Shown piece after piece: positions 48,230 to 52,295 of a DNA stretch of 64,000 nucleotides. Every line of letters starts with the position of its first letter. Position 1 is the first letter of the stretch. This stretch comes from Caldisericia bacterium (GTDB lineage: Bacteria; Caldisericota; Caldisericia; JAAYUI01). The translations under genes were made by a program, and so were the position numbers. The stretch is from positions 1,216,001 through 1,280,000 of the forward strand of contig OY771555.1 of NCBI GenBank assembly GCA_963674785.1, written 5' to 3'. Below the pieces are notes generated by a model that did not search any database, was not told the DNA's origin, and was given only the letters and a program-made list of their open reading frames with translations.

Positions 48230-48408
48230 AAACCTCTTTCTTTGATACACGTGATTATACGTCGTATTTCCATTTTCTCAATCACATCAAGAAAAATATG
48301 AAATAGGTTAAAATAGTATATCTTATTGGGAACAGTTCTTGATAATGTTCGGTCATTTTTTTGTTCAATTATCCAAAAAAAGTGTTATTTTAAAGCAATA
48401 ATTCTGAA

Positions 48409-48477
48409 TTGACAAATCATTTATGTCAAGGTCTTGACAAAAAAGATTTTTGTTCTATTATGGTATTGACAAAAAAG
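48409..48477 (+). promoter_or_regulatory. hsp20 promoter with clustered TTGACA elements
   Basis: TTGACA at 48409, 48434 and 48466, TGTCAA at 48424; TTGACA(48434)-16-TATTAT(48456); AGGAGG SD at 48482. Confidence 0.6.
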
Positions 48478-48492
48478 TAATAGGAGGTGTCT

Positions 48493-48918
48493 ATGGCAAT
48501 AGAAAGATATGATAGATTTGCGGATCCAAGAGAGTTTGCATCTGAAATTAGAAAAAGTATTTTCAATGGTTTATTCCACTCGGGAGACGATTACTGGAGA
48601 CCATTTTTTGATGTTACAGAAACTGAAGATGAATACCGAATGAAGATTTCAATTCCAGGTGTAAACAAGGACGATGTTGAGATTGAGATCAGAGATGATG
48701 TTGTTACGATCTCTGGGGAAAGAAAAGAGACAAAAAAGGAAGATAAAGAAGAGTATCACATCAGGGAGATTGTCTCAGGAAGATTCTCAAGGTCTTTGAA
48801 GCTTCCAGCACCAATCGATCCAGATGGTGTAGTTGCAAAATTCAAAGATGGTTTGCTCTGCGTAACTCTTCCAAAGAGTGAAAGAACAAAACCGAGAAAA
48901 ATTGAGATTGAGGAATAA
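48493..48918 (+). CDS. Hsp20/alpha-crystallin small heat shock protein
   Basis: DVTETEDEY, IPGV, ISGER, GRFSRSLKLP and AKFKDGLLCVTLPK motifs; C-terminal IEI. Confidence 0.95.
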   Translation: MAIERYDRFADPREFASEIRKSIFNGLFHSGDDYWRPFFDVTETEDEYRMKISIPGVNKDDVEIEIRDDVVTISGERKETKKEDKEEYHIREIVSGRFSRSLKLPAPIDPDGVVAKFKDGLLCVTLPKSERTKPRKIEIEE

Positions 48919-48928
48919 TCTGTTGTTT

Positions 48929-48958
48929 GAACTGACCCCATAATTATGGGGTCAGTTC
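48929..48958. repeat. Perfect 30-bp palindrome between hsp20 and the alpha-CTD/sigma4 gene
   Basis: GAACTGACCCCATAA-TTATGGGGTCAGTTC; no U-tract on either strand. Confidence 0.85.
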
Positions 48959-48974
48959 TAGAAAAGAGGATATT

Positions 48975-49742
48975 TTGGCCAAATTTATAATTCTTAAACC
49001 ATTACATCTCTATCCGATTGAGATTCTTGACCTCTCACATCGAGTGAATACCAGACTTAAAGAAAAAGGTGTAGCGACACTTTCCGATCTTGCGAAGTAC
49101 GATGATGATGAACTTCTTGGTATTTATCATTTTGGTCAAAAATCACTTGCTCAAATAAAAAAACGTTTGCAGATGTTGAATGAATGTGCATCAGCTCATG
49201 GAAAACCATCCCAAGAAATAATTGAATGTATGAGGCTCAGGCTTGATAAAGATGACAAACTAATTGAGGAGATCGTTAATTCTGTTATTGGTTCAGCACG
49301 TGAGCAAACGATAAGCTACTATATTTCTCAGATTCCGCTTAGACCCGCTTATGTCTTGATTGAAAGATTTGGAATGAAGCATGAGAAAAGAAGGACTCTT
49401 CAAGAGATTGCAAACATCATGGATTTGACTCGAGAGAGAGTAAGACAGCTTCAAGTCAGAGGAATTAAGTGGATGTTGAAATATACTGACTCTGATAACA
49501 CTCTTGAAAACTGGGAGGAAACTCTTACAGCATGTGCAAATGAGCCACCTATCAATGAGGCGTTATTTTTACAGCGTGTCGAAGACTCAGGTATAAGCGG
49601 TGAATCGAGTCCTGTTGGATTTGTTATTCTTGCAACAAATATGATTTTGAGAACTCCAATTCCCACGTTGCTTAAAGCATCAAGAATGCTAAAATTACAT
49701 AGGTTTTGGAAAAAAAATAAAGTAAAAAAGCAGATTGCATAA
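48975..49742 (+). CDS. RNA polymerase alpha-CTD-like domain fused to sigma70 region-4 HTH
   Basis: PIEILDLSHRVNTRLK...ELLGIYHFGQKSLAQIK (alpha-CTD HhH) and VLIERFGM...RTLQEIANIMDLTRERVRQLQ (sigma4.2); TTG start with GAGGA SD. Confidence 0.85.
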   Translation: MAKFIILKPLHLYPIEILDLSHRVNTRLKEKGVATLSDLAKYDDDELLGIYHFGQKSLAQIKKRLQMLNECASAHGKPSQEIIECMRLRLDKDDKLIEEIVNSVIGSAREQTISYYISQIPLRPAYVLIERFGMKHEKRRTLQEIANIMDLTRERVRQLQVRGIKWMLKYTDSDNTLENWEETLTACANEPPINEALFLQRVEDSGISGESSPVGFVILATNMILRTPIPTLLKASRMLKLHRFWKKNKVKKQIA

Positions 49743-49763: not shown

Positions 49764-50249
49764 ATGTCAAAAGACAACAAAGAGAACGTCGAAAAGTGTA
49801 ATAAGTATTTTGGTCCAAACCTTTTTAATGCAACATGGGATTTGATTGATAAAGGTGATAAGAGAACCGAAGAAGATGAGTTAATGATGATTCATACTGC
49901 CCATGCCTCAGCTTATCACTGGAGACAGGTTGGAAAACCCATCAATTTCGCAAGGAGTGAATGGCAGCTTTCAAGAGTATACTCTATTCTAAAAAGAGCC
50001 CAGCAAGCAATGTATCATGCCCAAAACTGTCTCAATATCTGTAAAGAGTGCAAGAAAAATAACGATGAGATTGCTGATTGGGATATTCCATTTGCATTTG
50101 AAGCCTTGGCAAGGGCAAGCCTTGTATCCGGAGCAAATGAAACTGCTGAAAAATTCCTCAAACTAGCAAAAACAGAGGGCGAAAAAATCTCTGGAGATGG
50201 CGATAAGAAATACTTTTTTTCAGAGATTGAGACAATAAAAATAGATTAG
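49764..50249 (+). CDS. Conserved hypothetical alpha-helical protein
   Basis: AGGAG SD; FNATWDLI, AHASAYHW, EWQLSRVY and FAFEALARA patterns of a TPR-like uncharacterised family. Confidence 0.75.
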   Translation: MSKDNKENVEKCNKYFGPNLFNATWDLIDKGDKRTEEDELMMIHTAHASAYHWRQVGKPINFARSEWQLSRVYSILKRAQQAMYHAQNCLNICKECKKNNDEIADWDIPFAFEALARASLVSGANETAEKFLKLAKTEGEKISGDGDKKYFFSEIETIKID

Positions 50250-50833
50250 TTAATCACATAATCTTTCGCGATTTTGTAAGAGTCATCGAACACGTCTGAC
50301 ACATGCGGCTTGAGTTCGATGACTTTATTTTTTAGTTTTTCAAATTCGATTGAATTGGTTTCGGAAGTGTATTTAAAACCATCTATTTCATTTGCCAAAT
50401 AAACTATAGTTGAAATACATTCTAGTTCTTTTCCGGATGCTCTTGCTAATTCATTTGCATTTTTATCAAGTACAGTGTTTTCAAGACCAAAAAGTTCTTC
50501 TGAGCTAGGAAAATCCCTTTCAGTCTCTAAATCTATATTCACAGTGTATTTCCAAGGAGAGTATTCTCCTATTGGTTCCTCTTCAGATAAGTAGGAGGTC
50601 TCATCAGACAAATAGGTAACATTTTTTGCAAGGGTTTTTGAAAAAACCCCATAGTTATAAAAATCAAAATCAAAATTGAATCCAGGTTTTGATTCTGGAT
50701 TGTGTTTAATAGATAGTTGTTTTATTAAGTATACCATTTTTTGAAGGTGGATTCTTCCATATATTGTACCACTGTTTATTGTGTGAAGCATTTTAAGAAT
50801 CCTTACCAGATCATTTATTGGCATTATCGCCAT
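50246..50833 (-). CDS. YwgA/Panacea (DUF4065/SocA)-like winged-helix protein
   Basis: GRIHLQKMVYL, FDFYNYGVFSKTL and LECISTIVYL motifs; start overlaps the stop of the HD gene. Confidence 0.7.
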   Translation of the reverse strand: MAIMPINDLVRILKMLHTINSGTIYGRIHLQKMVYLIKQLSIKHNPESKPGFNFDFDFYNYGVFSKTLAKNVTYLSDETSYLSEEEPIGEYSPWKYTVNIDLETERDFPSSEELFGLENTVLDKNANELARASGKELECISTIVYLANEIDGFKYTSETNSIEFEKLKNKVIELKPHVSDVFDDSYKIAKDYVIN

Positions 50834-52295
50834 TACTGTCCTCCGTTGAAGTCATTTCTTCTATTTTATCTCTATCTTCTTTTGAGACATAGTACTTTGT
50901 CTCAGGTTTTACTCCAGTAAGTTTTCTTGCTATCTCCGAAAACTCTGAAATATCTTGAATTTCATCTGATTTATCAAAATTGGGGTCAAACACCAAGATC
51001 AGCTCTTTTACTTTTTTCATCAATTCAAATTTTTTTTCGTCTTCTTTTAGAGCGCACCCGTACTTAATCAATGTCTTTACTTCATTGTATGATTCCTTAT
51101 TGAATTTATAAAGATCTTTCTCTTCGGGGGTGTCTGTAAGAGGTTTGAAACGCGAGAATACTTTTTTAATTTGATTCTCATTGAGATTTTCAAAGGATAT
51201 CTGTTTTAGTAGATCTCGGCTCAAGAATTGATCTGCTTCATCAATCAAGTCTGCAGAACCTTCAATTTTAGAAATAACACTCGAATCGCTTTGATTTAGA
51301 AACCAATTTAGGTCAAAATCCTCATCCTCTTTTTTGATTAACTCAGAATATTTATTCGAATTGTTAGTAGGTTTAAATTCAGGAATTTTCTTTATTATTG
51401 ATTCATAAAGAACTTCTACGCTCCTTGTTGTTTTGTGGTATGCTATGTTTTTGTAGTGAAAAACTCTTGATAAAAGGAACTGTTCAATTGTCGGTATGCA
51501 CTTCTTTTCATATACTATTCTAAGCCGTTCTTCTGGTTTGAGCCCGAATATGCTTAACATAGGTACTGATTTAACCAGCATAGACCTAAACATAAAGTCA
51601 ATATCCACATATACAGGTGTTCCACAAAAGTATGTATCTCTGAGGAGATAATCTAGTCTATCGCAATCTAGTTGAGATTTTATTAATGATGATATTATGT
51701 ATAATTTTGATACTTTGCCATTTTTCTTTGGTTCCTTTGATAGAATCTTGCTATCAAATGGAGTTACTCCTGTGATTAACTCGGAAATGTCATCTTTGAT
51801 TGTGATGGGGTATTCTTTGGATTTAACTCCATCGTCTAAGATTTTTGAAATAGCAGTTTTTTCATTGATCACCTTTGTGGAAGTGTCTTCATGATCAAAT
51901 CCAGGGCAGATTTTGCTAAATGTATGGGAAAAGGGTCCATGACCAATATCATGAAGAAGGCCTGCACATGACATGATATCAATGATTTGTTCCTCATCTT
52001 TGTACTGTTTGTTTTTATCTTGCTCTTTGCTAATAAAGTCGCTTAATTTAATTTGACCTTTCTCGAACAGCTTTCTGACAGCTTTTGAGACTAACCATGC
52101 TACCCCTATGCTGTGAGAAAATCTAGTATGTGTTGCCCCTGGATATGTAAAATCCGAAAATCCTAATTGTTTAATTCTTCTTAATCTCTGGAATTCCTTT
52201 GTATCAATTAGCTTCTTTACAAGACTATCTTTGGGGAAAGTGATCATTCCATGAATTGGGTCTCTAATAGTTAAATCTGAATTATTCTTGCTCAC
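50811..52295 (-). CDS. HD-domain dNTP triphosphohydrolase (SAMHD1/YwfO/EF1143-like)
   Basis: IRDPIHG, FQRLRRIKQLG, HTRFSHSIGV, LLHDIGHGPFSH, DCDRLDYLLRD and YHKTTR motifs. Confidence 0.92.
   Translation of the reverse strand: MSKNNSDLTIRDPIHGMITFPKDSLVKKLIDTKEFQRLRRIKQLGFSDFTYPGATHTRFSHSIGVAWLVSKAVRKLFEKGQIKLSDFISKEQDKNKQYKDEEQIIDIMSCAGLLHDIGHGPFSHTFSKICPGFDHEDTSTKVINEKTAISKILDDGVKSKEYPITIKDDISELITGVTPFDSKILSKEPKKNGKVSKLYIISSLIKSQLDCDRLDYLLRDTYFCGTPVYVDIDFMFRSMLVKSVPMLSIFGLKPEERLRIVYEKKCIPTIEQFLLSRVFHYKNIAYHKTTRSVEVLYESIIKKIPEFKPTNNSNKYSELIKKEDEDFDLNWFLNQSDSSVISKIEGSADLIDEADQFLSRDLLKQISFENLNENQIKKVFSRFKPLTDTPEEKDLYKFNKESYNEVKTLIKYGCALKEDEKKFELMKKVKELILVFDPNFDKSDEIQDISEFSEIARKLTGVKPETKYYVSKEDRDKIEEMTSTEDSNGDNANK

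Follow-up and report, generated by a model that had tools for sequence, protein, structure and literature searches.

The window analysed in this study, a stretch of 64,000 nucleotides (nt) on contig OY771555.1 of a bacterium from the class Caldisericia, is part of a single-contig genome (G000) of 2.23 Mb (2,233,174 bp, 39% G+C). It contains hsp20, the gene of a small heat-shock protein and, directly downstream as the preliminary description of this DNA had stated, a gene for a protein of 255 amino acids (aa) in which a domain like the C-terminal domain of the RNA polymerase alpha subunit (alpha-CTD) is joined to region 4 of a sigma factor (Table 1). Based on these domains, on a cluster of TTGACA hexamers at the hsp20 promoter and on comparison with a sample of 93 genomes of the phylum (families f1-f7, with genera g1, g2 and g3 inside f1), we lean, if only slightly, towards understanding the 255-aa protein as a putative hexamer-binding, autoregulated repressor of hsp20, a view drawn from sequence comparison and modelled structure.

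The hsp20 gene, which gives the single HSP20 match of the whole genome, likely starts at the ATG at 48494 behind AGGAGG rather than at the GTG at 48487. The hairpin that separates it from the gene of the 255-aa protein was not called as a terminator, and no promoter-like site was found between the hairpin and the start of the 255-aa protein; it is probably an attenuator or stabiliser within one operon. A GC-rich hairpin lies between the two genes in 7/7 loci where they are adjacent (read by eye), and the arrangement suggests a single operon with attenuated read-through. Two RNA-library contigs, from two studies, cover 48515-48758, inside hsp20, and none lies over the gene of the 255-aa protein, contigs alone speaking neither for silence of that gene nor for co-transcription. 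In the minimum-energy fold of 48905-48985, the lower hairpin stem pairs the AGG of AGAGGA, the ribosome-binding site (RBS) of the downstream gene, with an upstream UCU, and this predicted stem may be a translational damping or thermometer-like element.

Table 1. Features of the hsp20 locus, in window positions (residues are those of the 255-aa protein)
Feature	Position	Strand	Basis or remark
TTGACA hexamer 1	48409..48414	+	left arm of TTGACA-N9-TGTCAA; same N9 palindrome at g3 hsp20 promoters
TGTCAA hexamer 2	48424..48429	-	TTGACA on the minus strand; TGTCAA-N4-TTGACA with hexamer 3
TTGACA hexamer 3, hsp20 -35, followed by AAAAAG	48434..48439	+	TTGACA-16-TATTAT, 11/12 matches
-10 hexamer TATTAT, hsp20 promoter	48456..48461	+	promoter match 11/12
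TTGACA hexamer 4, followed by AAAAAG	48466..48471	+	just past the -10, in the predicted start site/leader, 22 nt before the start codon
hsp20, small heat-shock protein	48494..48918	+	Pfam HSP20, E 4.4e-26
Intercistronic hairpin, 13 bp, GC-rich, without U-tract	48929..48958	+	dG -29.1 kcal/mol, z -4.7
Gene of the 255-aa protein (regulator)	48975..49742	+	TTG start behind AGAGGA
alpha-CTD-like helix-hairpin-helix domain, residues 7-69	48993..49181	+	Pfam, fold match, invariant R23, G54, K56, S57
Helical linker, residues 70-105, invariant C71 and C85	49182..49289	+	alignment, AlphaFold model
Sigma region 4 (4.1 + 4.2), residues 106-175; recognition helix TRERVRQLQ at 152-160	49290..49499	+	Pfam, fold, alignment
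C-terminal helical domain, residues 176-248, conserved	49500..49718	+	pLDDT 88.5 folded alone

Domains of the 255-aa protein and its relatives

The 255-aa protein matches the Pfam families RNA_pol_A_CTD (PF03118; residues 12-66, E 4.7e-13, 49.1 bits at a cut-off of 23.8) and Sigma70_r4 (PF04545; residues 127-165, E 3e-9, 36.7 bits at a cut-off of 24.1), and NCBIfam alignments to RpoS and RpoD stretch the sigma match to residues ~94-180, over regions 4.1 and 4.2. Pfam gave no Sigma70_r2 or Sigma70_r3 match at E<=1, and no match to the N-terminal dimerisation/assembly domain of RpoA. The preliminary description had seen an alpha-CTD-like domain that keeps the Arg and GxKS residues and a region-4.2 helix (TRERVRQ), with no recognisable sigma region 2; it is borne out in each of these respects, and by fold the helix belongs to a full sigma region 4.

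In the AlphaFold (AF2) model computed from 13 family members (predicted local distance difference test, pLDDT, 84; predicted TM-score, pTM, 0.69), residues 7-69 superpose on Escherichia coli RpoA 249-311 over 63 residues (Z 8.8, root-mean-square deviation (rmsd) 1.6), with TMt 0.88 to alpha-CTDs in activation complexes, and residues 106-175 resemble region 4 of Thermus sigma-A (1ku3; TMt 0.81, rmsd 1.4, Z ~6). Because both aligned ranges of the alpha-CTD comprise 63 residues, the alignment is read as gapless, and it then places R23, G54, K56 and S57, invariant in the 13 family members, on RpoA positions 265, 296, 298 and 299, which we take to be DNA-binding residues of the E. coli alpha-CTD. 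The helix TRERVRQLQ is likewise invariant among the family members, and RpoD of G000 has TRERIRQIE at the aligned place, the same in 7/9 positions. Compared with domain 4 of primary sigma-70 factors, including RpoD of G000, the fold is the same and the recognition helix reads TRER(V/I)RQ in both; the 255-aa protein differs in that it is without sigma regions 1-3 (27% identity to RpoD over 83 columns) and carries its sigma region 4 in one chain with an alpha-CTD and a further C-terminal domain. With the alpha-CTD of RNA polymerase it has the fold in common and also the Arg and G-x-K-S residues, as kept in the Bacillus subtilis alpha-CTD, whereas the alpha N-terminal assembly domain is absent and the candidate A/T tract lies 3' of the hexamer, not 5'.

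The linker between the two domains is modelled as two helices, each carrying one of the invariant cysteines C71 and C85 (N-E-C ... E-C, 14 residues apart, codons in 49185-49229), and this pair could be a redox or metal switch. For the C-terminal domain (residues 172-255 folded alone) no convincing fold match was obtained (VIA best Z 4.4; Foldseek E at least 2.1). Winged-helix-type domains are among the weak fold matches, the Pfam search gave no HARE-HTH match, and an Atlas lead to HARE-HTH/sigma-4 clusters scores just 0.77; clostridial toxins, listed at E > 2, were dismissed as chance matches.

Several known identities were considered and set aside. Lacking sigma region 2, the 255-aa protein does not count as a sigma factor of the sigma-70 family. 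The 7 sigma region 2 matches of G000 (PF04542) all lie outside it, and half of a split sigma factor is ruled out, all seven of these open reading frames (ORFs) carrying their own sigma region 4. It is not RpoA, since the true rpoA (522 aa) is located elsewhere, at 1.41 Mb of G000; nor did Pfam give a match to the HrcA, MerR or CtsR families. The RpoA of G000 (G000:C1:1410912-1412480; L033 379-1947) has three weak alpha-CTD-like repeats with acidic linkers between them, two of which score 24.4 and 20.9 bits in Pfam, and in family f4 an RpoA CTD was found in 1/23 genomes at E<=0.001.

The domain composition might also be understood as that of an accessory subunit of the polymerase, whose sigma region 4 docks on the beta-flap or whose alpha-CTD replaces the degenerate CTD repeats of RpoA, with the effect that the holoenzyme is redirected to promoters having extra hexamers. 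Region 4.1, which contacts the beta-flap in sigma factors, is present. Moreover, the RpoA open frames of family f1 are 528-554 aa long (522 aa in G000) and contain two to three weak repeats of alpha-CTD type (20-34 bits), the alpha-CTD of the 255-aa protein family is the best in each f1 genome (36-53 bits), and family f7 has a normal RpoA (315-335 aa, 66-82 bits). We nonetheless consider the accessory role quite improbable: sigma region 2, the main core-binding domain, is missing, G000 has no orphan sigma-2 partner protein, the RpoA CTDs of f2 and f4 are equally weak or undetectable and yet these families are without the 255-aa protein, and the inverted and leader hexamers described below would be left unexplained.

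Among 5.8 billion proteins, the full-length relatives number 12 only (42-93% identity, all ~250-270 aa), the closest, at 93% identity, being a protein from a Caldisericota metagenome-assembled genome (MAG). Full-length orthologues occur in 10 of the 93 phylum genomes, all of them in family f1, and the other matches in these genomes are sigma-4 parts of long sigma-factor frames. In an eleventh f1 genome (G062, 69% complete) neither the gene nor hsp20 was seen. Adjacency to hsp20 in related genomes, proposed in the preliminary description as a check, is kept in 7/10 (g1 4/4; g2 3/3, counting the three g2 genomes with the regulator gene) and absent in 3/3 genomes of g3, where purD-purE lies upstream of the regulator gene instead and hsp20 is 60-67 kb away on one contig (G063, G065) or on a separate contig (G064). 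Where hsp20 is present in f1 it is a single-copy gene, G060 being the exception with three further copies on one extra contig.

Beyond its close relatives, the 255-aa protein is the short form of a wide class of proteins with the order alpha-CTD(n)-sigma4(-HARE-HTH), rather than an orphan architecture. An exhaustive remote search returned 1,118 matches at E<=0.001; 40 were picked from the best 150, mainly spanning both domains, and 35 of these 40 have RNA_pol_A_CTD (one to six copies) together with Sigma70_r4, both at gathering cut-offs, four of the 35 adding HARE-HTH at its cut-off and several more a weaker HARE-HTH match. The order of alpha-CTD and then a sigma-4-type helix-turn-helix (HTH) in one chain is the same throughout; the larger proteins, in which several copies of the alpha-CTD and HARE-HTH are common, have 400-2,200 aa, in contrast to the ~250-270 aa of the 12 relatives. 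One member, P0038 (448 aa), is collinear with residues 15-251 including the C-terminal domain (28% identity, E 1e-15). Ten of 11 larger class members tested match positions ~780-990 of profiles of PglW (BREX type 2), and the module of larger members also matches the sigma-4 part of the MzaA profile; the 255-aa protein itself gave 0 PADLOC families at E<=1e-5. As described in a 2026 comparative study (PMC12839542), PglW has an alpha-CTD-like domain followed by winged-helix (wHTH) modules. The search for related loci otherwise returned mostly true sigma factors. Literature searches found no stand-alone alpha-CTD/sigma-4 protein, although a 2012 HARE-HTH paper may mention such fusions, and a search on heat shock in Caldisericota yielded nothing relevant. 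At a Chloroflexi MAG locus (L111 2956-6734), the gene of a 632-aa alpha-CTD/sigma-4 protein precedes a 195-aa ORF without family and a gene for a HATPase_c_3 (MORC/Hsp90-like ATPase) protein, a context that may represent a conflict-system setting for the larger class.

Hexamer arrangement at the hsp20 promoter

The preliminary description had counted four TTGACA hexamers in 63 bp upstream of hsp20, two of them followed by AAAAAG. Four are present, and those at 48434 and 48466 do carry AAAAAG; the one at 48424, however, is inverted. The genome as a whole has 955 TTGACA and 925 TGTCAA, that is 1,880 hexamers, so that ~0.05 would be expected per 63 bp; the four seen are far beyond chance. The region upstream of hsp20 is the sole place in G000 with at least four hexamers in 70 bp, and there are three places with at least three (a cluster scan allowing one mismatch proved too noisy for use). 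TTGACA is also enriched in intergenic DNA of G000, which holds 235 of the 1,880 hexamers in ~7% of the genome. In a related strain (DNA run X3), 7 differences are listed in 48345-48402 and none in 48403-48509.

The hexamer-rich hsp20 promoter is kept in all three f1 genera, ten f1 loci having 4, 2, 5, 1, 4, 1, 1, 4, 5 and 6 hexamers in the 200 bp before hsp20. Among 40 hsp20 loci from families f2-f7, which lack the 255-aa protein (a subset of the non-f1 matches, those near contig ends and a few others being omitted), no hexamer is present in 23, a single one in 15 and two in 2, and the f1 architecture is absent from 40/40. The pair formed by hexamers 2 and 3 is conserved as TGTCAA-N4-TTGACA(-35) in G068 and G067, in G066 the spacer contains TTGACA-N4-TGTCAA and the leader TGTCAAgTTGACA, and the g2 promoters have TTGAAA-N3/4-TGTCAA in the spacer. 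In g3, TTGACA-N9-TGTCAA lies over the -35 and the spacer (3 loci), with a TGTCAA ahead of the RBS in the leader that is paired with TTGACA in 2/3 loci and with TTGAAT in the third; the separate regulator gene of g3 has a promoter of its own, TTGAAC-N3-TGTCAA-...-10 and then TTGACA, in 3/3 loci. Inverted hexamer pairs are the conserved feature at hsp20 in f1. Upstream of hsp20 lies a divergent gene in G000, G066 and g3 and a co-directional one in G067 and g2, and the inverted TGTCAA is kept beside the co-directional genes as well.

From 39 f1 hexamers, an extended half-site cTTGACAAAwwTT is obtained, with A at +6 in 32/39 and at +7 in 29/39 sites, compared to 39-40% for all intergenic TTGACA in G000, these counts overstating independence because many of the sites come from close relatives. 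The A/T tract beside the hexamers, which the preliminary description had linked to UP elements, lies 3' of them and not 5', where a UP element would have it.

As also noted in the preliminary description, operators of the known heat-shock repressors are not in evidence: using what we take to be the consensus sequences, no CIRCE (<=5 mismatches), HAIR (<=4) or CtsR box (<=4) was found in 48251-48494. HrcA is encoded at 1.05 Mb of G000 and two CIRCE-like sites lie elsewhere in the genome, hence hsp20 appears to be outside that regulon. Other families show other designs. In f4, 7/10 hsp20 promoters (L074-L080 of L074-L083) have a CIRCE-like ttagcactc-N9-gagtgcc over the TATAAT -10 (by eye), and hsp20 there appears therefore to be HrcA-controlled; f2 and f3 have one canonical promoter TTGACA-N17-TATAAT with an A/T-palindromic spacer, and the upstream regions of f5 and f6 have a common TTTGGGAATA/TTTGGGCATA motif.

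The placement of the hexamers bears on the direction of a possible regulation. An activator that binds the same hexamers and recruits or stabilises the polymerase at the hsp20 promoter through contacts of its alpha-CTD or sigma region 4 would fit with G000, G068 and G067, where the -35 is directly preceded by one or two hexamers, in class I/II activator position; the TTGACA-N9-TGTCAA of hexamers 1 and 2, just upstream of the -35 of G000, is an example. Alpha-CTD and sigma region 4 are also the usual contact surfaces in activation, and the PDB titles of the fold matches show alpha-CTD/sigma-4 activation complexes. Opposed to this are the inverted hexamer conserved inside the -35/-10 spacer of G066, g2 and g3 and the leader hexamers of G000, G066 and g3, positions that hinder polymerase. 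The hsp20 promoter is near consensus (11/12) and should need no activator, and, with its gene inside the operon that it switches on, an activator would be expected to enter runaway positive feedback. We therefore regard activation as unlikely. By position, neither the spacer hexamers nor those 22-43 nt ahead of the start codon can be the -35 of hsp20, and in G000 no promoter-like match uses the hexamer at 48466 as a -35.

Candidate mode of action and points against it

As a hexamer-binding repressor, the 255-aa protein would be a free-standing, sequence-specific DNA-binding regulator built from the two upstream promoter-reading modules of RNA polymerase. The sigma-4 HTH would be expected to read TTGACA, since its recognition helix is the same as that of the housekeeping sigma factor, and the alpha-CTD would read the A/T-rich minor groove beside the hexamer, both domains together defining the extended half-site cTTGACAAAwwTT. 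At the hsp20 promoter, several of these half-sites, the majority of them arranged as inverted pairs, cover parts of the -35, the spacer and the transcribed leader, and their occupancy would exclude or block RNA polymerase; the sites in spacer and leader are the reason why repression is favoured over activation. Specificity over ordinary promoters might come from the A/T tail in combination with several neighbouring sites. Given that the gene is probably read from the hsp20 promoter (g1, g2) or from a promoter of its own of like design (g3), regulation would include negative autoregulation. Stress would then release the repressor, the candidate sensors being the protein's own stability (thermal unfolding), the Cys71/Cys85 pair and the C-terminal domain. 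If the protein regulates hsp20 by binding hexamers, the promoter architecture should track both the hsp20 and the regulator promoters and be missing from families without the protein, as is observed. The preliminary description had left repressor and activator side by side; its proposal is supported in part, by the linkage in 7/10 genomes and by the conserved hexamer-rich promoters, and the repressor is the form of the proposal towards which the spacer and leader sites point.

There are analogies to the four well-studied classes of dedicated bacterial heat-shock repressor, HrcA (acting at CIRCE), HspR (at HAIR), CtsR and RheA. In these systems as in the present one, the regulator gene is linked to, and probably co-transcribed with, a chaperone gene, and inverted-repeat sites over the promoter are combined with an autoregulatory logic (a proposed one in the present case), HspR and HrcA being negatively autoregulated. 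The 255-aa protein is non-homologous to all four, and its predicted operator half-site is the promoter's own -35 hexamer; to our knowledge, none of the four uses polymerase parts.

The hexamers at hsp20 could alternatively belong, as plain -35 elements, to several promoters that overlap, stand in tandem or diverge, and the 255-aa protein could have a general DNA-binding or defence-related role unconnected to them. TTGACA is, after all, the -35 of the host and is enriched between genes, hexamer 2 may be the -35 of a weak promoter on the minus strand (TTGACA-17-CAGAAT, 10/12) with a divergent gene upstream in G000, and members of the wider class match the PglW and MzaA profiles. A like-looking arrangement, TGTCAAgccTTGACA at G000:C1:1650240-1650254 (L096 1258-1272), lies between the divergent genes rpmF and rpsT. 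It is a back-to-back divergent promoter pair that gives TGTCAA-Nx-TTGACA, each -35 having a -10-like hexamer at a distance of 16 nt (read by eye); its spacer gave no Rfam match, and near-identical pairs of this type recur in g2 and g3 genomes. Such a coincidence nevertheless seems rather improbable to us, given that the four-hexamer cluster is unique in G000, that no -10 partner is listed for hexamers 1 and 4, and that the design is kept at hsp20 across three genera with diverging flanks, is kept beside co-directional upstream genes, recurs at the g3 regulator promoter and is absent from all 40 hsp20 promoters outside f1. The 255-aa protein, moreover, has no PADLOC match and lies outside a defence neighbourhood, its gene having hsp20, an aminotransferase gene and a TPR-like ORF as neighbours.

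Several findings weigh against repression of hsp20 by the 255-aa protein, in addition to the minus-strand promoter match of hexamer 2 and the rpmF/rpsT pair. The orthologues all come from one clade, so that protein and promoter type occurring together amounts to one evolutionary event; with the near-identical genomes G059/G061 and G064/G065 among them, many of the sites are not independent. The g2 promoters have one exact hexamer only, plus a TTGAAA -35. Spacing and orientation of the pairs vary (convergent N3, N4, N9; divergent N1, N4, N12-17), which is unusual for a rigid dimeric operator. Elsewhere in the f1 genomes, inverted pairs are numerous too (per genome, 1-8 convergent and 7-23 divergent ones), and specificity for hsp20 is therefore demonstrated for G000 only, where the numbers of pairs are near the expectation from hexamer frequency (10 vs ~7, 5 vs ~3); outside G000, a larger regulon and chance cannot be separated. 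A peroxiredoxin promoter of G000 described below has the design as well, and its inverted hexamer is missing at 2/2 orthologous promoters (G068, G067). Finally, judged from profile matches, the alpha-CTD/sigma-4 module resembles part of a defence protein, PglW, and two Chloroflexota members of the wider class are not beside hsp20 and have nothing in common with the G000 locus.

G000 has 6 intergenic inverted pairs at a spacing of <=25, of which 2 are at hsp20, and the others include dnaX/holB-type and GNAT/YgbA sites. The promoter of a 1-Cys peroxiredoxin (AhpC/TSA) has TGTCAAgcacTTGACA at G000:C1:1364371-1364386 (L094 ~1339-1354), in the TGTCAA-N4-TTGACA design found at hsp20.

A more specific version of the repressor proposal is promoter mimicry, in which the detached sigma region 4 and alpha-CTD would compete with the holoenzyme for the -35 hexamer and for the decoy hexamers surrounding it, and in which heat or oxidants would release the protein via the Cys pair or the C-terminal domain. 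We put this forward tentatively, as a possible heat-shock regulator family of a new kind, and with less confidence than hexamer-dependent repression as such.

Implications and neighbouring genes

If the repressor proposal were true, the 255-aa protein would be a dedicated heat-shock regulator assembled from the promoter-reading domains of RNA polymerase, of a kind not previously described, and regulators could be seen to evolve by detachment of promoter-recognition modules that then compete for the promoter itself. It would also provide a first functional handle on the alpha-CTD/sigma-4 module of large metagenomic proteins and of the BREX kinase PglW; should promoter mimicry apply, the module in hundreds of large proteins and in PglW would likewise be a reader of a -35-like hexamer plus A/T tract. 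The system is small, consisting of one 255-aa protein and ~70 bp of DNA.

Past the two genes, a 161-aa ORF (49764-50249, + strand) starts 22 nt after the regulator gene and is adjacent to it in G068 and G067 too. It has no significant Pfam family, and its Atlas features match those of widespread TPR-like hypothetical proteins of ~160 aa (score 0.98). On the minus strand at 50246-52295 follows an overlapping gene pair for a 494-aa HD-domain protein (HD, E 1.8e-7; HD_assoc_2 weak) and a second protein, of 195 aa, whose SocA/Panacea antitoxin-like match is weak (E 0.031); the two could represent a toxin-antitoxin or defence pair.

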